Origin: a virus | Taxonomy: Duplodnaviria; Heunggongvirae; Uroviricota; Caudoviricetes | Reading direction: 5' to 3' (one strand) | Virus record (IMG/VR): IMGVR_UViG_2737471993_000002 | DNA length: 64,000 nt | Made by a program: the position numbers and the translations under genes | The notes under the pieces: generated by a model | Databases searched by the model: none | Told to the model about the DNA's origin: nothing | The model's input: the letters and a program-made list of their open reading frames with translations, nothing else | Shown here: positions 25,363-61,220 of the stretch, one piece after another | Layout: each line of letters starts with the position of its first letter | Position numbering within the stretch: position 1 is the first letter of the stretch

Positions 25363-26031
25363 ATGACCAAGATCTTTGTGGTTGGCGGCACAAAGGGCGG
25401 GCCTGGCAAATCCACCGTTGCCCAGCAAATTGCCGTTTGCCTGAAAGTCAAAAAGAAGAAGAAGGTTTATATTACCGATATAGATATTCAGCGCACGACA
25501 ACGAGCTGGTGTGAAGACCGTCGACAGAACGAAGACCTTGAGCTGATTCCTTTTGCATACGTTCAGGATGACATCATTAAGCACCTAAAATCGCTTCAGG
25601 GTAGAGCTGAGTTTGTAGTGGTAGATGCTGGTGGCTTCGACTCCGAAATTCAGCGACAAGCGATGCTGATGGCTGACGTTATCATTATCCCGCTGCGTCC
25701 TAAGCGTCGTGATTTGAAATCTTTACGTGACATCGATCCTATTATCGACAATGTTCGCAATGTAAACGATAAAGTGAAGGTCCGCGCGGTCATGAACCAG
25801 TGCCCGGCTTTGCCATCACAAGTGTCTCGCATTCTGGCGGCTAAAGAGATTGTTGAGACGTTTGGCATCGAGTCTGCGCCAGTCAATCTATATAACCGCA
25901 ACGTCTATGATGATGCGGAAGAGTCTGGTCGTTCTATCTTTGAAATGACCGGTAGCGAGCGCGACAAAAAGGCGGAAGCCGAGTTTGAAGAATTTGTAGA
26001 TTATCTGTTGAGTCTGGAGGAAGAAGAATAA
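25363..26031 (+). CDS. parA: ParA-family partition ATPase
   Basis: N-terminal deviant Walker A (VVGGTKGGPGKST), 222 aa, followed by a small overlapping partner gene. Confidence 0.8.
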   Translation: MTKIFVVGGTKGGPGKSTVAQQIAVCLKVKKKKKVYITDIDIQRTTTSWCEDRRQNEDLELIPFAYVQDDIIKHLKSLQGRAEFVVVDAGGFDSEIQRQAMLMADVIIIPLRPKRRDLKSLRDIDPIIDNVRNVNDKVKVRAVMNQCPALPSQVSRILAAKEIVETFGIESAPVNLYNRNVYDDAEESGRSIFEMTGSERDKKAEAEFEEFVDYLLSLEEEE

Positions 26032-26390
26032 TGTCCATGAAAATGGGTGACCTAGCAAAGCGCAAAGAGCCTGATGCACCGGCTAAGAACACAACTCCTT
26101 TGCGCCAACCAGTCAGACCACAGGGACGCCCGACTCGTGGCAAAGAGAAAATTAAAAGCCGCACAATGTCACTGGAAGACGAATACTTCGAACTGCTGGA
26201 GATGATGAAGTTCATCCCTCGCTTCGAGAAGTTCACTCGTTCTGACGTGATTCGAGCAGCCATTTTCCATCTGGCAGAGAAGTCACCGCAGGAAATCGAG
26301 GACATCGTGAAGCTTAACGAGGCGATCACAGCTGCCGACGTTACGATGCGTACCGATGAAATTAAACGAGAGTTGATGAAGAAAGGTTGA
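26031..26390 (+). CDS. small partition-associated DNA-binding protein (ParB/ParG-like)
   Basis: 119-aa basic protein translationally coupled to parA (ATGA-type overlap); role inferred from context. Confidence 0.4.
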   Translation: MSMKMGDLAKRKEPDAPAKNTTPLRQPVRPQGRPTRGKEKIKSRTMSLEDEYFELLEMMKFIPRFEKFTRSDVIRAAIFHLAEKSPQEIEDIVKLNEAITAADVTMRTDEIKRELMKKG

Positions 26391-26432: not shown

Positions 26433-28136
26433 TTGATACTAATGGAATCGATAGAATCATTTCTAAAAAATTTTCTAGTTTCAGATCATCGGGTTGCCGT
26501 CATAAAAGGAGATTGGGGCGTTGGTAAAACTCATTATTGGAATAGTTTTTATACTAAGCATTCTGAAGGATTAGATTTTAATGCATATTCGTATGTTTCT
26601 TTGTTTGGGGTTAACTCTATTGGTGATATTAAAAAAGCTCTTTATCATTGTGCCACACCAATTAATGAAAAGAAATATAAAGAACTAATTTTATCTGAAA
26701 CGGATCGAACTATGATTCGTTATAGAAATGGGTTTTTGGGATGGTTGAAATACAACTCCTTGTCAAAATTTTTAATACATTTCGGAAAGAACGATTTTTT
26801 TGGGTTCAAAACAGATAACCTGCTGTCATCTCTTGAGTATAAATTTGTTAATAATTATTTGGTTTGTATTGATGATGTTGAAAGAAAAGGTAATTCGCTA
26901 GAAGTTAAAGAAATTATGGGGGTAATTGATGAATTGGCAAGAAGAAAAGGCTGCAAAGTTGTTCTAATTTTAAATGAAGATAATTTACATGATGAAACTG
27001 CAAAAAAACAGTTTTTAGAGTACAGAGAAAAAGTAATTGATGTCGAAATAAAATATGATCCTACGCCTGAGAAGAACTTACGTAAAGTTTTTTATGAAAC
27101 TGATTCTGATTTTCTTTTGTTAAAAGTCTTAGCAAATGACTTAGGCATTAAAAATATCCGTATATTAAATAAAATAAAAACATCTCTGGTTAATCTTAGG
27201 AATGAGCTAAGCTTGGCAGAGGATAAGGTTAGAGAAAGTTTTATCAATAGATTGGTTCTGTTTTCAGTGGTTTACTATTCTGGTGTTCCAGGTGTTGATT
27301 ATGCCTTGTTTAAAGAATCAATTAAAAACATACATGTATTTGATTACATGTTAGATGATAAAAAGGATGATTCTGTATATTCATTTATTAATAGTCTTGA
27401 TATTATTTATGAACGAGCGGAAATTGCTTTCGATGATGACATAGATTTTTATCTCAAGAATGGTTATCTTTCTACTGAAAGCAATATTCGAGGTATAATA
27501 GAAGAAAAAAATAAACAATATAAAGAACACAAGGCTTTATGTGAGGTTAACAATGTTTGGGATATTTTTAGTGACTCATTCAAGGACAATGAATCTGAGT
27601 TTATTTCTAAGATAAAATGTGTAATTAACGACAATCTTTCACACATACCTGTTGCTCACTTCATAGGCTTGATTGATATCTTAAATAGATTGGAGATTGA
27701 TTGTGATAGTTATATAGAGGCATATGCAGATGCCTTTGTTAGCCAAGATGATGCTTATACTGCTTTTCGGAATTTGTATGTAGAGATATTTGGTAACGAA
27801 AAGTTAGGTCTGCTAATTCAAAAAAAATTGATGGATAAGAAGCCTGAAGAGACTAATTTAGAGAATGTTTTATACAAAATAATTGAAGGCAAATTTAATC
27901 ATAGTGACATAGCATATCTTAACAGTTTCTCTGAAGATGATTATTTAAAGTGGATATTATCCCGCAATCAGGATGCTTTGGATTTAGTGAGAAAGGGGTT
28001 GCTCAGATTCAAAAGTATGCAAGAACTAACAGAAGAACAGCAAAAAATCACGAATAAAGCAATAGGTGCATTAACGAAACTGGCCTCTAGATCAAGTCTT
28101 AACAAACTACGTGTGAGCAGATTGCTTAATAATTAA
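26433..28136 (+). CDS. KAP-family P-loop NTPase (AT-rich cargo gene)
   Basis: Walker A GDWGVGKTH and Walker B LVCIDDVER fit the KAP family. The gene is visibly more AT-rich than flanking backbone genes. Confidence 0.6.
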   Translation: MILMESIESFLKNFLVSDHRVAVIKGDWGVGKTHYWNSFYTKHSEGLDFNAYSYVSLFGVNSIGDIKKALYHCATPINEKKYKELILSETDRTMIRYRNGFLGWLKYNSLSKFLIHFGKNDFFGFKTDNLLSSLEYKFVNNYLVCIDDVERKGNSLEVKEIMGVIDELARRKGCKVVLILNEDNLHDETAKKQFLEYREKVIDVEIKYDPTPEKNLRKVFYETDSDFLLLKVLANDLGIKNIRILNKIKTSLVNLRNELSLAEDKVRESFINRLVLFSVVYYSGVPGVDYALFKESIKNIHVFDYMLDDKKDDSVYSFINSLDIIYERAEIAFDDDIDFYLKNGYLSTESNIRGIIEEKNKQYKEHKALCEVNNVWDIFSDSFKDNESEFISKIKCVINDNLSHIPVAHFIGLIDILNRLEIDCDSYIEAYADAFVSQDDAYTAFRNLYVEIFGNEKLGLLIQKKLMDKKPEETNLENVLYKIIEGKFNHSDIAYLNSFSEDDYLKWILSRNQDALDLVRKGLLRFKSMQELTEEQQKITNKAIGALTKLASRSSLNKLRVSRLLNN

Positions 28137-57287: not shown

Positions 57288-57563
57288 ATGAGAGTTTTAG
57301 TTCGAATCGTTACCAGCACTGTCTATGACGTGTTTCCGCTTTTTATGGTCAAAGCCGATGGCCTTAACGACGAAGAAACTGACGCGCTGATCCAGCGTAT
57401 TCTCGTTGAATATACAGGTCATGACGCTGATTCAGTGATGGTTGATGATGATGGTGTTTGTTGGCATAACGGCAACTGTTGGTACGTAGAAGAGACTCAA
57501 CAAATCAGTGATGAAGATGCCGCACATCTTGAGCGTATTTTAAGCATCAGCACTTTTGAGTGA
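57288..57563 (+). CDS. hypothetical protein
   Basis: 91-aa acidic ORF preceded by the AAAGGAAAAACACATG leader. Confidence 0.45.
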   Translation: MRVLVRIVTSTVYDVFPLFMVKADGLNDEETDALIQRILVEYTGHDADSVMVDDDGVCWHNGNCWYVEETQQISDEDAAHLERILSISTFE

Positions 57564-57778
57564 GTTTACAGTAAAATTTATATAAGTTAGTGTCTACCTA
57601 TCATGAAGATTTTTATTGAATACTTGTTACTCATCGTTTCAATAGCTTTTGTCATCGACTGCATTTTCACCGGTGTCATTCGTAAAGTCTTTTCCCCGGT
57701 GAACGACGTAGTCATAAACGCTTTGGCTATCGTGCTCGTATTTAATTCAGCATTTGATGTAATCAAAGAGGTGGCAGC

Positions 57779-58114
57779 ATGAAGGCCATCCCATTCGCGC
57801 TGTTGTTCCTTTCTTCGATCGTTGTGGCCGACACCACTGTTTATCAGTGTGAAATGTCTGTAGCCGACGTTAAGAATGGCGCTCTTACCGACGTCATAAA
57901 AGCACCATATGGAGCGATGGTCGTAGACAGCGGCGACCAGTTCTATGTTGTGCGTGACGATCGAGTGTTGTCATCCCCATATCTCACAAATCGTAATGGC
58001 AAATTAACCGGCGTCGGAGAAGACCACTTCGTATACAACAAATACAAGGGCTTCTATGGTGTTCACGCTTCTCAGCAAAGCTACCTTTTCGATGACTGCA
58101 AGGAGGTTGGATAA
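57779..58114 (+). CDS. hypothetical secreted protein
   Basis: 111 aa with N-terminal signal peptide (MKAIPFALLFLSSIVVA). Confidence 0.45.
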   Translation: MKAIPFALLFLSSIVVADTTVYQCEMSVADVKNGALTDVIKAPYGAMVVDSGDQFYVVRDDRVLSSPYLTNRNGKLTGVGEDHFVYNKYKGFYGVHASQQSYLFDDCKEVG

Positions 58115-58326
58115 TGGCATTAACACTGGCAGGTCTGGAAATCGAGAAAACAAGCGGCTACTGGCGTGCTAAGGGTTTCAAGCAGCCTGGCATTCTTGAG
58201 CGTCTGGAACGTGAAGATGGGTATATCGTCCACCAGCGGCGTGAATGGCGTATGTACGATCCAGAAACAGGAAAACTGACTACAAAAGCCGGAACACTTT
58301 GGGGTCTGTTAAAGAAAATACACTAA
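58114..58326 (+). CDS. hypothetical protein
   Basis: 70-aa ORF coupled to the previous gene; followed by an 8-bp stem hairpin at 58336-58357. Confidence 0.4.
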   Translation: MALTLAGLEIEKTSGYWRAKGFKQPGILERLEREDGYIVHQRREWRMYDPETGKLTTKAGTLWGLLKKIH

Positions 58327-58373
58327 ATGCAAACTGACTGCGGCACGTTCCGCAGTCATATTTCATAGTCGTC

Positions 58374-58906
58374 ACCGCTGACAGCATACACAATCAACTA
58401 CCGCTGATAGCATATCGAGAGTCTATCTCACCGCTCACAGCATACTTTACTCGATTTTTTACCGCTGACAGCATACTTAAGACATTGCATGAATAATGTG
58501 TACCGGTATGGGTATAACCAGAACAAAATTACCGCTGGCAGCATACGAAGGTCTGACATATACCATTAATTACCGCTGATAGCATATCCAAACAAAAATT
58601 CCTCAATAAAACACCGCTGACAGCATACGTTCTATCAGGGAGCAGCAGGCAATAAATGCCTTTCACTACAAGCAATCAGCGCAATAGCAATAGAATGTTA
58701 GTGAGCGCAAACCTATATGGAATGCACTCTTCGAGGTTAGTAACCACTGGGGAGGTATGACAGAGCATTGAGTGGTGATAGATGATTTACCGCCCACAGC
58801 ATACGTTCATCTCACTATACCGCTGGTAGCATATATTTAACCGTTTACAGCATACTTTTCAGAAAAATAGCCGCTGATAGCATACATTTCACCGCTGACA
58901 GCATAT
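58374..58906. repeat. iteron array downstream of repA (incA-like): twelve copies of a 16-bp repeat
   Basis: ACCGCTGACAGCATAC and one- or two-base variants at 58374, 58400, 58430, 58461, 58531, 58572, 58613, 58789, 58819, 58840, 58870 and 58891, with irregular spacing and mixed spacer lengths. Confidence 0.8.
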
Positions 58907-60000
58907 CAAAGCAGTTTGAGACTATTGGAAAGGATCTCAATCATCTTGATATTTTCAGGCGTCAAATTCTGCGAAAGTTCGGTTATCTTGTTGATAATGT
59001 TCTGTTTGGCATCAATTTCCCCAGCTTTCTCATCTAGTTTTTTGGGTTCGATGTCTTCAGGTTTTGGCGGTGCGACTTTGAGTTTTGGATTGCGGCTGTG
59101 AATCTGGATATAGATCGACCGCCCTCGCTTAATCTCGCTGTATTCGAGATAACCCAAATCTTGGAGAGCTTTTAAGCCGTTGCGTATAGTCTGATTCTGC
59201 GAGCTGACATTCCTGCTACTCAAATTGAGTCGCGCACGCAATCGAGCAAGCGATACCGGCGCAGGCTTGGTTGGAAGACTTTCGATGAAGGTGTACAGAG
59301 CCTGTGCTGTTTCTTTGCGTGGTAGCTTATTGATAACCTTTAACTGCAAAAGAACCTTATGGTCAAAGCGATATAGTTCGGCCAGCTTCGGTTCTGCATA
59401 GAACACCACCGTATCTTTCTGCTCGTTGTAGTCCACGCTATTGATGAGGTGCACCATCAGAAGCGAGATCTTGTTAGAGCCGTCGACGTTCTTTTCTTCA
59501 TACGTTCTCTGGAAAGACAGAGTTGTACGCATGATCTTCAAAAGACTGTTTGTAAGCCGGTCGCGGAGTGTTTTGCGGATCTGTGACGATGGATAGCCAC
59601 AAAACTTCGCAAATTTCGTGATGCTTAACTCGACACGACCGTTAGGTTCGCCGTATTCTGCCAGCGAACGCACAACGCCCACCCACGTTTTGAAATCATG
59701 ATCCATGTCGAGACGAGGACCGGTTATCTTGATATCGGAATAGCCTTCAGAACGGGCTACTTCGAGCTGAACAAGCTCCTTTGAAGCATCGATCTCATTT
59801 GGCTTGTTACGCTTGCTGTATTTTGTCCCCTTGAGCGTGGGCACGAACAATCCCAGCCGCATCAACGCAATTGGTTGGACTGTATTGTTGCTATTAGGGA
59901 CAAGTTCCCCTGTGTACAATTCAAGGGAACCTTCTTCAAAGTTGTCGAGATTATCTTCTACTTCTTTGTTATTTTTACCTTTTTTATTTTTTGTGGACAT
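58906..60000 (-). CDS. repA: iteron-binding replication initiator RepA
   Basis: 364-aa basic protein flanked on both sides by the same 16-bp iterons. The track ORF (to 60120) is extended through the upstream iterons; the ATG at 60000 (MSTKNKKGK...) is the plausible start. Confidence 0.7.
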   Translation of the reverse strand: MSTKNKKGKNNKEVEDNLDNFEEGSLELYTGELVPNSNNTVQPIALMRLGLFVPTLKGTKYSKRNKPNEIDASKELVQLEVARSEGYSDIKITGPRLDMDHDFKTWVGVVRSLAEYGEPNGRVELSITKFAKFCGYPSSQIRKTLRDRLTNSLLKIMRTTLSFQRTYEEKNVDGSNKISLLMVHLINSVDYNEQKDTVVFYAEPKLAELYRFDHKVLLQLKVINKLPRKETAQALYTFIESLPTKPAPVSLARLRARLNLSSRNVSSQNQTIRNGLKALQDLGYLEYSEIKRGRSIYIQIHSRNPKLKVAPPKPEDIEPKKLDEKAGEIDAKQNIINKITELSQNLTPENIKMIEILSNSLKLL

Positions 60001-60020
60001 GTGGACACCTTTGTCATTCA

Positions 60021-60122
60021 ACCGCTGACAGCATACTTGATTTGCCGCTGACAGAATACCAAAAACAGTTGGCAGCATACGGTGAACCGCTGACAGACTA
60101 TCAATTACCGCTGACAGCATAC
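60021..60122. repeat. iteron array upstream of repA (incC/origin-like): four to five copies
   Basis: ACCGCTGACAGCATAC-type repeats at 60021, 60044, 60086 and 60107, plus a partial copy near 60067. Confidence 0.8.
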
Positions 60123-60162
60123 ATGAACATGGCTTCAGACCAGTCGTGGCGCGGCTTACAGC

Positions 60163-60235
60163 GATCGGGGATCTTATTTGATCTATACAAGGATCTATCT
60201 ATGGATCTCTTTATTAGGATCTATCCTGTGGATAT
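60163..60235. promoter_or_regulatory. origin-like region: six GATC sites in GGATCTAT-type repeats plus a DnaA-box-like site
   Basis: GATC at 60163, 60170, 60180, 60192, 60204 and 60218; TGTGGATAT at 60227-60235 is one mismatch from the reverse complement of the DnaA box TTATCCACA. Confidence 0.5.
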
Positions 60236-60321
60236 GTGAATAATTAAAACAGGCATTTACTACCTTCGGCGCACCTGGTGGGTTATCGTTGCCTCGGCTA
60301 ACAATCACAGAAAAATGACAT

Positions 60322-60966
60322 ATGGATCTAAAACGTACGCGCTGGGTTCGTCGTCTTGAAGACGGCTCCTACACTATCGAATCAAATTCCAACCTGAATA
60401 AGCAGAAGTTGCTTTGTGACATCTGCGGTATAGCGGCGAAGTGCCCGATCTACGAAACCAGAATTAAACTTGATAAGGCTGGTGTGAATTTTCATTTAAA
60501 CAGTTGCATCAGGTACGTTCCATTACTCGCATTTCGTAAACCGATCATCGGATTGGATGCTCCCTACTTCAACACACTCCGTTCAGGTGTGACGTGGCGA
60601 GATCGTTTATCACCAGACAAGCTGATTTGCCTCGTATCCGCAGACACAGGGAAAATCATCCGTTTTGGGAAAGTAGACAAGGTTTACTCAGGCCCAGTAG
60701 ACGAAATGTTGCGGAAACACAGCCGGTTTAATCATCTCTGTATGGGTGGTGAGAAAATCGAGAAAGTAGAAGAAGTGATCCGCAAATCCTACGGACACTT
60801 TCTGACCAAAGATAGCCTGCTCACCGCAATCTACATCAGACATGTAAAACGTGAGTTCGACCTCGAATACCACAGCGAAGAAGAGCTTAACCTTGTTGAC
60901 CCACGTCCAAAAGCTGGCGTCATAAGCATAAACGCAGCGCGTAAAAAGCCCACTGACGCGCTGTAA
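60322..60966 (+). CDS. hypothetical protein
   Basis: 214-aa ORF downstream of the origin; no recognisable motif. Confidence 0.5.
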   Translation: MDLKRTRWVRRLEDGSYTIESNSNLNKQKLLCDICGIAAKCPIYETRIKLDKAGVNFHLNSCIRYVPLLAFRKPIIGLDAPYFNTLRSGVTWRDRLSPDKLICLVSADTGKIIRFGKVDKVYSGPVDEMLRKHSRFNHLCMGGEKIEKVEEVIRKSYGHFLTKDSLLTAIYIRHVKREFDLEYHSEEELNLVDPRPKAGVISINAARKKPTDAL

Positions 60967-61220
60967 CCCTCCAGATCGTATATTGGCGTAGATAGAATCT
61001 ACGCCCCCTCAAAATAGCTCTCATAGCGTTCTACAGTGATCCTGTCTTATTTTTAGTCATACAGACAAGCAAAGTTGCGCCACGATAAATAGGTATATAC
61101 TTACTTATAAATTTTGTATATTAAGGCGCTCGTTTCATTCCTAACATACCGTTATGCATAGTTGTTTACCTCCTCATTGCTCTTAGAATTTGTATCAAAA
61201 TAACCACAAAGGAAAAATAC

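Follow-up and report, generated by a model that had tools for sequence, protein, structure and literature searches.

The region at positions 58374 to 60235 of the window (the whole stretch of 64,000 nucleotides that we analysed) is the plasmid-maintenance replication module of an E. coli phage-plasmid of the pECOH89/SSU5 group, and it consists of an origin, the initiator gene repA, and a copy-control repeat array. By homology with the P1 R replicon and other Rep_3 initiators, this theta-type, iteron-controlled replicon very probably keeps a siphovirus of the pECOH89 type (SSU5 supergroup) in the cell as a circular plasmid prophage of low copy number (probability about 0.9). The sequence-only reading had proposed a P1-type iteron replicon, in the P1 R order of GATC/DnaA region, iterons, repA, and twelve more iterons, and both the order of the parts and the homology to P1 RepA and oriR bear this out. 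That reading is correct but ordinary: the replicon type is already catalogued and is not new. Judged from its sequence, the replicon is a member of the P1 family by descent and not P1 itself. Because RepA is 46% identical and the origin core 78% identical to P1, the likeness is real homology that goes beyond mere layout.

Origin core and origin iterons

We mapped the following parts of the origin.

60227..60243, minus strand: two tandem DnaA boxes at the outer origin edge, with one base shared between them
60243-60235, minus strand: DnaA box TTATTCACA, 0 mismatches to TTWTNCACA
60235-60227, minus strand: DnaA box ATATCCACA, 1 mismatch to TTWTNCACA
60163..60221, minus strand: six GATC (Dam) sites in 59 bp, starting at 60163, 60170, 60180, 60192, 60204, and 60218
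60124..60160, minus strand: GC-rich spacer (…CGATCGCTGTAAGCCGCGCCACGACTGG…) between the GATC cluster and the iterons, A+T 43%
60021..60121, minus strand: origin iteron array, five direct copies of gTATGCTGTCAGCGGT, spaced 21/21/21/23 bp along the repA sense

A GATC cluster with one DnaA-box-like site had been noted at this end of the region. The cluster stands, with its six sites, but the single box proved to be two tandem boxes (60243-60227), which carry the feature to 60243 and so slightly past the end at 60235 that it had been given. Homology with P1 oriR extends further still, to 60254. Across the origin core (DnaA boxes, GATC cluster, and spacer), 93 of 119 columns are identical to P1 oriR (78%), and the alignment score was 96, versus 15 ± 2.3 for shuffled sequences. 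The tandem DnaA boxes of P1 oriR (TTATCCACATTATCCAC) align with the two boxes in the window, its annotated Dam sites align one-for-one with the six GATC sites, and the spacer is conserved between the two, the P1 counterpart being CTGATCGTTGCAGGCCGCGCCACGTCTGG. The Cronobacter and Citrobacter relatives have the DnaA-box sequence TTATTCACATTATCCACA.

Five of the six GATC sites lie in (T/G)AGATC(C/A) repeats and the other lies in CGATCG. The cluster is the densest in the window, where the runner-up has 3 sites per 70 bp; with 0.27 sites expected per 70 bp, the Poisson probability of at least six is 4.7e-7. Over 60160-60240 the DNA is moderately AT-rich (63% A+T), and this is the most A+T-rich part of the origin.

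The iterons share a 15-nt core, which reads CCGCTGACAGCATA on the plus strand and TATGCTGTCAGCGG in the repA sense. When up to 3 mismatches were allowed, we observed 23 matches in the 64-kb window, compared with 4.75 ± 2.35 (maximum 12) in shuffles, and 17 of the 23 were inside the replicon in a single orientation. At up to 2 mismatches, there was no match elsewhere in the window or in the rest of a 110-kb relative. The origin cores start at 60021, 60044, 60065, 60086, and 60107 (spacing 23/21/21/21), and the middle one is degenerate, with 3 mismatches. The number of origin iterons upstream of repA, previously put at four to five, is therefore settled as five. Five origin iterons, spaced as in the window, were present in 5 of the 6 relatives scanned (PhiR41_1, pECOH89, and the Klebsiella, Citrobacter, and Cronobacter relatives); in Salmonella AnCo3 the same scan found four only.

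The repA promoter is probably located in the origin iteron array. Scanning the minus strand upstream of repA for consensus promoters turned up none. A relaxed scan gave weak candidates inside the origin array, the best of which matched 7 to 9 of 12 positions with spacers of 18 to 19 bp.

RepA and its start codon

58906..60000, minus strand: repA, encoding an initiator of 364 aa (short form), with its stop codon at 58906-58908

RepA belongs to the Rep_3 class. Pfam PF01051 (Rep3_N) matched residues 118-239, scoring 37.5 bits where the cut-off is 22.4 (E 3.9e-9), and the protein matched PHROG 775 with an E value of 4.6e-133. Initiators of this class (RepE, pi, and pPS10 RepA) have two tandem winged-helix domains, the WH1-WH2 fold. 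By BLASTP, 129 of 278 positions were identical to P1 RepA (46%, E 4e-86), covering residues 20-284 of the 286 in the P1 protein, and tblastn gave a match to P1 and P7 at E 2e-64. The comparison with plasmid Rep families that had been proposed as a check thus yielded Rep3_N together with the RepA proteins of P1 (46%), SSU5 (52%), and RepFIB (~47%). NCBIfam searches gave no match for RepA or for the neighbouring 214-aa ORF, and a PDB sequence search with RepA gave none at E ≤ 1. An AlphaFold model of RepA predicted from the single sequence had a mean pLDDT of 38, too low to be of use.

The open reading frame of repA continues for 40 codons through the iterons, as had been noted, and we confirmed this 404-aa ORF. 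NCBI PGAP starts RepA there, at 60120. Were the 404-aa form the genuine one, RepA would start within the origin iterons, and its promoter would lie in the GC spacer/GATC region. The long form is what RefSeq gives for E. coli, Klebsiella, and Salmonella records, in which the frame through the iterons is open. However, the iterons are phased at 21 bp (7 codons) and have no stop in that frame, so the frame stays open through them, and the ATG of the long form is the iteron's own, lying within iteron 1 (T-ATG-CTGTCAGCGG). In Citrobacter and Cronobacter, the frame upstream of repA closes after 28 codons and contains no ATG, yet the start formed by a Shine-Dalgarno sequence, ATG, and MxTxKKK is still conserved. 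The ATG at 60000 is preceded by the Shine-Dalgarno sequence AAAGGTG, and AAAGGT(G/A)-N5-ATG is conserved in six replicons. Homology to the RepA proteins of P1 and SSU5 starts only at residues 30-32 of the short form, and the PhiR41_1 record annotates a 364-aa RepA. We consider the long form improbable. The sequence comparisons support a start at ATG 60000 over the 404-codon database call, in agreement with the earlier view that this start was the more plausible one.

Downstream control array

58789..58905, minus strand: proximal sub-array of the control (incA-like) array, five direct iterons adjoining the repA stop, spaced 21/30/21/30 bp
58374..58627, minus strand: distal sub-array of the control (incA-like) array, seven direct iterons, spaced 26/30/31/70/41/41 bp

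Twelve further iterons had been reported downstream of repA, and we mapped all twelve core starts between 58374 and 58891. The array runs from 58905 to 58374 and begins at the repA stop codon. The proximal cores start at 58789, 58819, 58840, 58870, and 58891, and the distal cores start at 58374, 58400, 58430, 58461, 58531, 58572, and 58613. The long iteron-free gap is real. It covers 161 bp (58628-58788), with a start-to-start spacing of 176 bp, and it splits the twelve iterons into 5 and 7, which agrees with the suggestion that the array may be two sub-arrays.

All control iterons are direct, both in the window (12) and in six relatives. The copy number of the array is 9, 11, or 12 among relatives; PhiR41_1 is without the three outermost distal iterons through an 87-bp iteron-to-iteron deletion. 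A constant set of five origin iterons (5 of 6 relatives) together with a variable control array is consistent with an origin that is essential and a control locus that can be tuned.

A conserved non-iteron element in the gap

58694..58755, plus strand: conserved ~62-bp non-iteron element AATGTTAGTGAGCGCAAACC…GAGGTTAGTAACCACTGGGG in the control-array gap

The element contains two GTTAGT motifs 39 bp apart, as well as CAAAC and CACTGGG. It is common to replicons with different RepA and iteron specificities, and its position is inside or outside the array, in either orientation, depending on the replicon. Neither P1 nor the RepFIB example that we examined (pJIE186-2) has it, and the P1 model offers no counterpart.

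We favour a duplex protein-binding site over an RNA or a hairpin. As an RNA, the alignment folded without covariation (covariation term +0.18, one compensatory pair). Rfam, searched with 57500-61000 at E ≤ 1, returned nothing, and thus no known RNA regulator is present. As a hairpin, the single-strand DNA folded no better than shuffles in five of six cases. We also rejected a repeated site, such as a centromere near parA, since the window contains one copy of the element, and so does the 110-kb relative over its full length. A tie to the C-terminal tail of RepA failed because RepFIB has the tail but is without the element, and it is further undercut by the H89 and SSU5 tails, which are not alignable. 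The likeness to an Xer (dif/cer) or IHF site, judged by eye only, was unconvincing.

We raise, as a rather doubtful suggestion, that the gap element may be a second class of regulatory site that modulates handcuffing or copy control and is bound by a host factor or a factor encoded by the SSU5-type backbone. If this were true, the element might, for example, couple plasmid replication to the state of lysogeny or lysis. The control region of Vibrio cholerae chromosome 2 contains non-iteron 39-mers, and the logic of the gap element would then resemble that of these 39-mers.

Partition module and phage-plasmid backbone

58335..58358, no strand assigned: GC-rich hairpin TGACTGCGG-n6-CCGCAGTCA, terminator-like on both strands
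25363..26390, plus strand: partition module, 33 kb from the replicon
25363-26031, plus strand: ParA-type Walker ATPase of 222 aa, small class (Pfam MipZ/AAA_31/CbiA)
26031-26390, plus strand: ParA partner of 119 aa

The hairpin is the outer boundary of the replicon toward a convergent operon of small ORFs (57779-58326). A ParA had been called at 25363, and Pfam together with PHROG 164 ("ParA-like partition protein," E 4.2e-51) confirmed the gene at 25363-26031.

The window is 96 to 99.9% identical to NZ_CP027358.1, a 110-kb circular E. coli plasmid, and is collinear with it apart from some gaps. The window element is a mosaic relative and not an identical record. The genes of NZ_CP027358.1 include those for capsid, terminase, tape-measure, tail, DnaE, primase, and NrdAB, and the window element encodes its own DnaE, primase, and DnaB-like helicase. 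Virion and DNA-metabolism genes, with replicon-flanking genes syntenic with those of SSU5 and pMT1, place the element on the SSU5-like backbone. The idea that the element is a plasmid-prophage holds up well: a collinear circular plasmid carries virion genes, the replicon is 98.5% identical in phage PhiR41_1, and ParA is confirmed. Derivatives in E. albertii, 62 to 64 kb in size and IS-ridden, have kept repA, the iterons, and both partition genes. For one of these, of which 50 of 63.8 kb were examined, no capsid or tail genes were listed and dnaE was truncated.

Distribution and typing

The replicon is 100% identical to that of NZ_CP027358.1, and 143 plasmid records match it. Among 5,426 complete E. 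coli genomes, 120 contained a total of 185 matching places, all of which were on plasmids and none on the chromosome. The repA gene is intact and 96 to 100% conserved in about 120 plasmids. MOB-suite assigns rep_cluster_488 both to pECOH89 and to the 100%-identical record. The PlasmidFinder reference for IncFIB(H89-PhagePlasmid) is presumably pECOH89, as the name of the type indicates.

The replicon of pECOH89 (HG530657 / NC_023916.1) is 98.8% identical to that of the window over 1,826 bp without gaps, the differences being point changes only. It shares the 12+5 layout (17 iterons) and spacing, and its RepA is identical at 362 of 364 positions. The replicon of p09EL50 (NC_018651.1) is 98.9% identical, and both plasmids have the same phage-plasmid backbone as the window. 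PhiR41_1 was deposited as a phage with E. coli MG1655 as host; a literature search found no paper on it. Both pECOH89 and p09EL50 have been described as E. coli phage-like plasmids (Falgenhauer et al. 2014, PMC3999498), and that paper already gave 48% RepA identity between pECOH89 and the pLF82 type. The literature groups pECOH89 with SSU5.

The replicon type is a standard typing target, so the practical value of these findings is modest. The family of E. coli phage-plasmids that it identifies is widespread, occurring in about 2% of complete genomes, and some members carry CTX-M-15. In databases the protein of this replicon is simply a "RepB family initiator," and the start codon given there is probably incorrect. 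In the searchable literature we found no published iteron, DnaA-box, and GATC anatomy of the H89 type, although this is not proof of absence. What we add is an anatomical map of the H89 replicon (DnaA boxes, Dam cluster, 5+12 iterons, and a probable true start codon), direct evidence that the host-factor half of the origin has stayed alike in this replicon and P1 despite the divergence of RepA and the iterons, and one candidate extra control element in the gap. Such divergence of RepA and iterons with the host-factor half kept is the expected route out of incompatibility. The current understanding of iteron replicons is unchanged by these findings.

Proposed mechanism and alternative readings

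We found no experiments on the H89 replicon type (mini-replicon, footprint, copy number, or incompatibility) in the searchable literature, so each step of the mechanism is borrowed from P1 and RepFIB. One 2026 preprint describes copy-number mutants of a phage-plasmid, but that element is of the CopA/IncFII type and 49 kb in size, which makes the preprint irrelevant here. Indirect support for autonomous replication comes from the confinement of the replicon to plasmids and from its retention in the degraded E. albertii derivatives. In the proposed mechanism, RepA would be translated from the ATG at 60000, and RepA monomers would occupy the five phased iterons of the origin. Together with RepA, host DnaA bound to the two outer boxes would open the region of the GATC cluster and load DnaB. 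The six GATC sites would tie initiation to full Dam methylation, and sequestration of hemimethylated DNA by SeqA would block immediate re-initiation. RepA on the origin iterons would also repress its own promoter, which would be located inside the array. The twelve downstream iterons would act like P1 incA, titrating RepA and "handcuffing" the origin iterons in cis and in trans; titration and handcuffing together would hold the copy number near one to two per chromosome and set incompatibility. For segregation, the element would rely on a separate system, the distant small ParA module. Because its iteron sequence is unlike those of P1, SSU5/pMT1, and RepFIB, the element is expected to be compatible with them.

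Two other readings bear on this mechanism, and we regard both as very unlikely. One is that the downstream repeats are a second origin or a partition centromere and not a copy-control locus. In its favour are the length of the array (12 copies, 530 bp), its division into two parts, and the fact that our work identified no centromere for the ParA module. However, in sequence and orientation the downstream repeats match the origin iterons, so RepA must bind them too, and the array occupies the exact position of P1 incA, from the stop codon. It is also without DnaA boxes, a GATC cluster, or an AT-rich tract. The repeat number varies freely among close relatives, an infectious phage included, as one would expect for a control array but not for an origin. 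The other reading, which has as little to recommend it, is that the whole replicon is a dispensable relic and that the phage DnaE-like polymerase, primase, and DnaB-like helicase keep the prophage from another origin. The element does carry a full set of phage replication proteins, and the searchable literature yielded no experiment on this RepA. Against this, the conservation of an intact repA across about 120 plasmids is accompanied by an obvious pattern of constraint in the iteron arrays. In the degraded E. albertii derivatives, dnaE is truncated and IS elements have inserted, yet repA, the iterons, and ParA are intact, and homologous RepA replicons drive P1, pMT1, and the IncFIB plasmids.

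Comparison with P1, SSU5-type, and RepFIB replicons

Replication from a P1-type R replicon needs RepA, DnaA, Dam methylation, and DnaK/DnaJ/GrpE, and the downstream array exerts copy control and incompatibility. P1 (oriR - repA - incA, IncY) shares the order of parts with the window: tandem DnaA boxes, GATC repeats, GC spacer, five iterons, repA, and control array. The origin iterons lie just upstream of repA at about two helical turns in both, spaced 21/21/21/22 bp in P1 and 23/21/21/21 bp in the window. The first incA iteron of P1 starts at the last base of repA, and the array in the window likewise starts from the stop codon; control-array spacings of ~30 and 41 bp occur in both. The iterons themselves differ. 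That of P1 is the 19-bp GATGTGTGCTGGAGGGAAA and that of the window is TATGCTGTCAGCGGT, with only a CAGCA(Y)AC-like stretch in common. Thus, specificity and incompatibility group differ as well, and this is not a P1/IncY replicon. P1 has nine control iterons (3 direct and 6 inverted, as read from its sequence), whereas the window has 12, all direct. The mixed orientation in P1 incA is a descriptive feature and is not known to be a requirement for control. The handcuffing geometry need not be identical, since the control iterons of the window are all direct, unlike those of P1 and RepFIB. The 161-bp gap with its conserved non-iteron element is found in the window and not in P1. Compared with P1 RepA, the RepA of the window has an extra lysine-rich N-terminal stretch of ~30 aa and a C-terminal extension of ~55 aa. 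In P1 the large parA-parB-parS locus adjoins incA, whereas in the window the array is followed by the terminator-like hairpin and convergent small ORFs, and the small ParA is 33 kb away. P1 is a myovirus, and the window element is a siphovirus.

SSU5 and the Y. pestis plasmid pMT1 carry their replicon in the same syntenic slot of the phage backbone as the window: a 111-aa ORF, a 70-aa ORF, control array, repA, origin, and a 214-aa ORF. SSU5 RepA is 52% identical to that of the window, and SSU5, pHCM2, and pMT1 have the same DnaA-box/GATC origin design. The SSU5-type replicon also has the conserved ~62-bp non-iteron element of the window downstream of repA, but there it is inverted relative to repA. 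Its iteron differs (…CCACTGTAG…), its control iterons are in both orientations, and pMT1 has an additional iteron cluster past the GATC region.

RepFIB of F-type plasmids, for which we took pJIE186-2 as the example, has a RepA ~47% identical to that of the window. A DnaA box and a GATC cluster adjoin the iterons in its origin, and iterons flank repA on both sides, as in the window. In both proteins the C-terminal tail ends in a short amphipathic helix. This kinship explains the "IncFIB" and "RepB family" labels. The RepFIB iteron differs (ACATAAGCTGT…), its downstream repeats are mostly inverted, and the replicon is carried by a conjugative plasmid and not by a phage.

The replicon and its type

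The sequence-only reading, a P1-type iteron replicon at 58374-60235, proved accurate, and its interpretation is supported. The layout was borne out by RepA homology, by alignment of the origin DNA and by the same order of parts. Because P1 homology reaches into the origin DNA, the P1-type call is one of homology and not of analogy alone.

Features of the replicon (window positions).
58374, 58400, 58430, 58461, 58531, 58572, 58613 (starts): control array, distal group, downstream of the ORF
58789, 58819, 58840, 58870, 58891 (starts): control array, proximal group, downstream of the ORF
58906-60000, minus strand: repA, initiator of 364 aa
60021, 60044, 60065, 60086, 60107 (starts): origin array, five iterons upstream of repA, spacing 23/21/21/21 bp
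Between origin iterons and GATC cluster: GC-rich spacer
60163-60221: six GATC sites in 59 bp
60235-60227, repA strand: DnaA box, inner of a tandem pair, ATATCCACA
60243-60235, repA strand: DnaA box, outer of the pair, TTATTCACA

This replicon is an already known type from a known phage-plasmid family. The 2-kb region has a 100% identical counterpart in the 110-kb E. coli plasmid NZ_CP027358.1. In all, 143 plasmid records match it, and 136 of these are non-mobilizable. Compared with pECOH89, it is 98.8% identical without gaps, with 362 of 364 RepA residues shared and an identical 12+5 iteron layout. Among 5,426 complete E. coli genomes, 120 carry the replicon; all 185 matching places lie on plasmids and none is chromosomal. 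The deposited phage PhiR41_1 (listed host E. coli MG1655) has a 98.5% identical replicon. The 2014 description of pECOH89 presents it as a phage-like plasmid with p09EL50, pHCM2 and phage SSU5 as relatives, and reports that its RepA matches p09EL50 RepA exactly and the pLF82 type at 48% identity (PMC3999498). IncFIB(H89-PhagePlasmid) is a type name in routine use in surveillance papers, and phage-plasmid surveys assign the group, mostly IncFIB-typed, to the SSU5 supercommunity of siphoviruses. What remains of value here is an explicit anatomical map, a likely start-codon correction and an unexplained gap element.

Iteron arrays

De novo repeat search and pattern search found 17 copies of one repeat, in a single orientation, within 58374-60121. 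The core is CCGCTGACAGCATA on the plus strand (gTATGCTGTCAGCGGT in the repA sense). At ≤3 mismatches it has 23 matches in the whole window, compared with 4.75 ± 2.35 (maximum 12) in 100 shuffles; at ≤2 mismatches there are none outside the replicon in the window and none in the remainder of the 110-kb relative. Upstream of repA, where "four to five" iterons had been proposed, the scan gave exactly five (60021-60107). The twelve proposed downstream were all found, in groups of seven and five, the first adjoining the repA stop codon.

Five origin iterons with unchanged spacing were present in five of the six relatives scanned, and four were found in Salmonella AnCo3. Control iterons number 12 in the window and pECOH89, 11 in the Citrobacter, Cronobacter and Salmonella AnCo3 relatives, and 9 in Klebsiella pJX9-2. 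PhiR41_1 also has 9, having lost three distal copies by an exact 87-bp iteron-to-iteron deletion (L002 4075-4145 versus window 58374-58461). Thus, control-array copy number is polymorphic (9 to 12) among functional relatives. This pattern of constraint, a constant origin array and a variable control array, fits a P1-like control model.

In the Citrobacter and Cronobacter relatives (L007 992-1028, L010 2220-2256), an inverted pair of SSU5-type iteron-like sequences, TATCCACTATGGGAAG / CTTCCCATAGTGGTTA, ends the H89-type arrays distally. The pair could be left over from a different replicon type that previously occupied this position, or could be just a terminator hairpin. The window carries another hairpin at the corresponding position (58335-58358).

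RepA and its start codon

The search of RepA against plasmid Rep families matched the Pfam winged-helix domain Rep3_N (37.5 bits, cut-off 22.4) and PHROG 775, the family containing P1 RepA (E 4.6e-133). Identity is 46% to P1 RepA (129/278, E 4e-86, nearly its full length), 52% to SSU5 RepA and ~47-50% to IncFIB(K)- and RepFIB-type initiators, which are present on at least 5,000 enterobacterial plasmids. Searching NCBIfam and the PDB sequences with RepA gave no match, and a single-sequence AlphaFold model had a pLDDT of 38, too low for use.

The ORF track had been suspected of overextending RepA by 40 codons, with a start at 60000 likelier, and our comparisons agree. The ATG at 60000 has AAAGGTG plus 5 nt ahead of it, and this SD-ATG-M(S/P)T(K/R)KKK start is kept in PhiR41_1 and in Klebsiella, Salmonella, Citrobacter and Cronobacter relatives. 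A 404-codon ORF through the origin iterons does exist. Its 40-codon extension spans 60001-60120, starts from the ATG within the outermost origin iteron, iteron 1 (T-ATG-CTG-TCA-GCG-GT), and owes its open frame solely to the 21-bp (7-codon) phasing of the iterons. In Citrobacter and Cronobacter the upstream frame shuts after 28 codons, without an ATG. P1 and SSU5 RepA homology begins at residues 30-32 of the short form. PGAP calls RepA at 404-405 aa (NZ_CP027358.1, L001 6607-7821, and three further records, L006 1774-2991, L009 2715-3932 and L014 101-1315), and the PhiR41_1 record annotates 364 aa. The conserved SD-ATG, the iteron-borne ATG, the frame closure in relatives and the start of homology indicate that RefSeq/PGAP probably overextends RepA by about 40 codons in replicons of this type, with the conserved start at the SD-ATG at 60000.

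The N-terminal extension of RepA is lysine-rich. The C-terminal tail of ~55 aa (58906-59075, residues ~310-364) has an acidic, proline-rich linker and then a short amphipathic helix (…ENIKMIEILSNSLKLL).

Origin host-factor region

Of the proposed GATC cluster and single DnaA-box-like site, the cluster stands and the box count does not, since there are two tandem boxes. The cluster is the window's densest: the runner-up has three sites, and 0.27 are expected per 70 bp (P(≥6) ~5e-7). Window 60140-60254 aligned with P1 oriR at 93 of 119 identical columns, covering the tandem DnaA boxes, the AGATCC repeats and the spacer GCCGCGCCACG; the score was 96, compared with 15 ± 2.3 (maximum 23) for shuffles. 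A three-way alignment including SSU5 was also made. By distant BLAST search, the same ~110 bp occurs at ~83% identity in many ~95-kb enterobacterial plasmids.

A 214-aa ORF at 60322-60966 (PHROG 2105) is the invariant divergent neighbor of the origin in all SSU5-supergroup loci examined (E. coli, Klebsiella, Citrobacter, Cronobacter, Salmonella, SSU5 and pMT1), and a seventh GATC (60325) overlaps its start codon. Beyond the window, NZ_CP027358.1 36442-37035 encodes a phage-type N6-adenine methyltransferase; "dam" is among the shared genes listed for pECOH89 (PMC3999498). By analogy with P1's Dmt, this enzyme could methylate the origin GATC cluster without host Dam.

An element in the control-array gap

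The long iteron-free gap noted at 58629-58788 is real (161 bp; 176 bp start to start). It contains a ~62-bp non-iteron element, 58694-58755, in which GTTAGT (twice, 39 bp apart), CAAAC and CACTGGG are invariant across seven replicons. The element occurs once per plasmid (window and whole 110-kb relative). It lies within the array in E. coli, Salmonella, Citrobacter and Cronobacter replicons and distal to it, outside, in Klebsiella pJX9-2. In SSU5 and pMT1, whose iterons differ from the H89 type, it is inverted relative to repA, and it was not found at the P1 and RepFIB loci examined. It had no Rfam match, no covariation in the alignment fold and no stable single-strand fold. We take it to be a putative duplex protein-binding site whose distribution follows the SSU5-type backbone and not RepA specificity.

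Phage-plasmid context

The element had been read as a plasmid-prophage, partly from a ParA at 25363. This reading is upheld by virion genes on a collinear plasmid, by the replicon in phage PhiR41_1 and by ParA itself.

Partition genes.
25363-26031: small ParA-type ATPase (Pfam MipZ/AAA_31/CbiA; PHROG 164 "ParA-like")
Directly after the ParA gene: 119-aa partner protein

The window is 96-99.9% identical to NZ_CP027358.1 and collinear except for some gaps; it is therefore a mosaic relative rather than another copy of that record. That plasmid has annotated virion genes (major capsid, terminase, tape-measure, tail) and genes for DnaE, primase, DnaB-like helicase, ligase, NrdAB, integrase and the N6-adenine methyltransferase. 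It also has 1,264 bp (L001 1141-2405) more than the window (~54705), inside a LAGLIDADG family homing endonuclease gene that is named "RecA-like protein" in PhiR41_1. Close relatives apparently vary in whether they carry an intein or homing endonuclease here. A gene for a 567-aa KAP-family P-loop NTPase (26433-28136; Pfam KAP_NTPase, E 1.6e-5) adjoins the ParA/partner pair and may be a defense or accessory gene.

In E. albertii, plasmids between 62 and 64 kb long carry the replicon at 99% identity: p2014C-4015-1 (63.8 kb) and six comparable records of 62 kb. Over its first 50 kb, p2014C-4015-1 is interrupted by IS110 and IS911, has gained hdeAB, retains only a truncated dnaE and lacks virion genes, yet repA, the iterons and the ParA module are all intact. 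These plasmids are degraded phage-plasmid derivatives, a natural deletion series. Such derivatives recur in several bird isolates.

Proposed mechanism

By homology with the replicon of P1 (R) and with Rep_3 initiators (PMC6090056 reviews how iterons work in general), RepA monomers would occupy the five phased origin iterons, and DnaA on the outer boxes would assist DnaB loading and melting of the GATC cluster region, which at 63% A+T is richer in A+T than any other part of the origin. Through the six GATC sites, initiation would depend on Dam methylation and be subject to SeqA sequestration. The repA promoter would lie inside the origin array, making RepA autorepressing; the promoter candidates found, TTGATA-19-TATGCT and TTGGTA-18-AAGTAT, are both weak. 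The 12 control iterons would titrate RepA and handcuff origins, giving low copy number and incompatibility.

Comparison with P1, SSU5/pMT1 and RepFIB

From curated annotation and sequence, P1 has the same order: DnaA boxes, five Dam sites, five iterons at 21-22 bp, repA and nine incA iterons. The incA iterons start at the last base of repA, much as the first control iteron here abuts the stop codon, and spacings of ~30 and ~41 bp occur in both control arrays. PrepA spans iteron 11 in P1, and the candidate TTGGTA-18-AAGTAT spans iteron 4 here. However, the iteron sequence differs, so specificity and incompatibility group are predicted to differ from those of P1. Control iterons are all direct here, whereas P1 has three direct and six inverted, those of RepFIB are mostly inverted and those of SSU5/pMT1 are mixed. 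Unlike P1 RepA, RepA here carries the lysine-rich N-terminal extension. It also shares with the SSU5, pMT1 and RepFIB initiators a kind of C-terminal tail, unalignable among them, that P1 RepA lacks. Finally, P1 parAB abuts incA, whereas partition here is unlinked and uses a small ParA.
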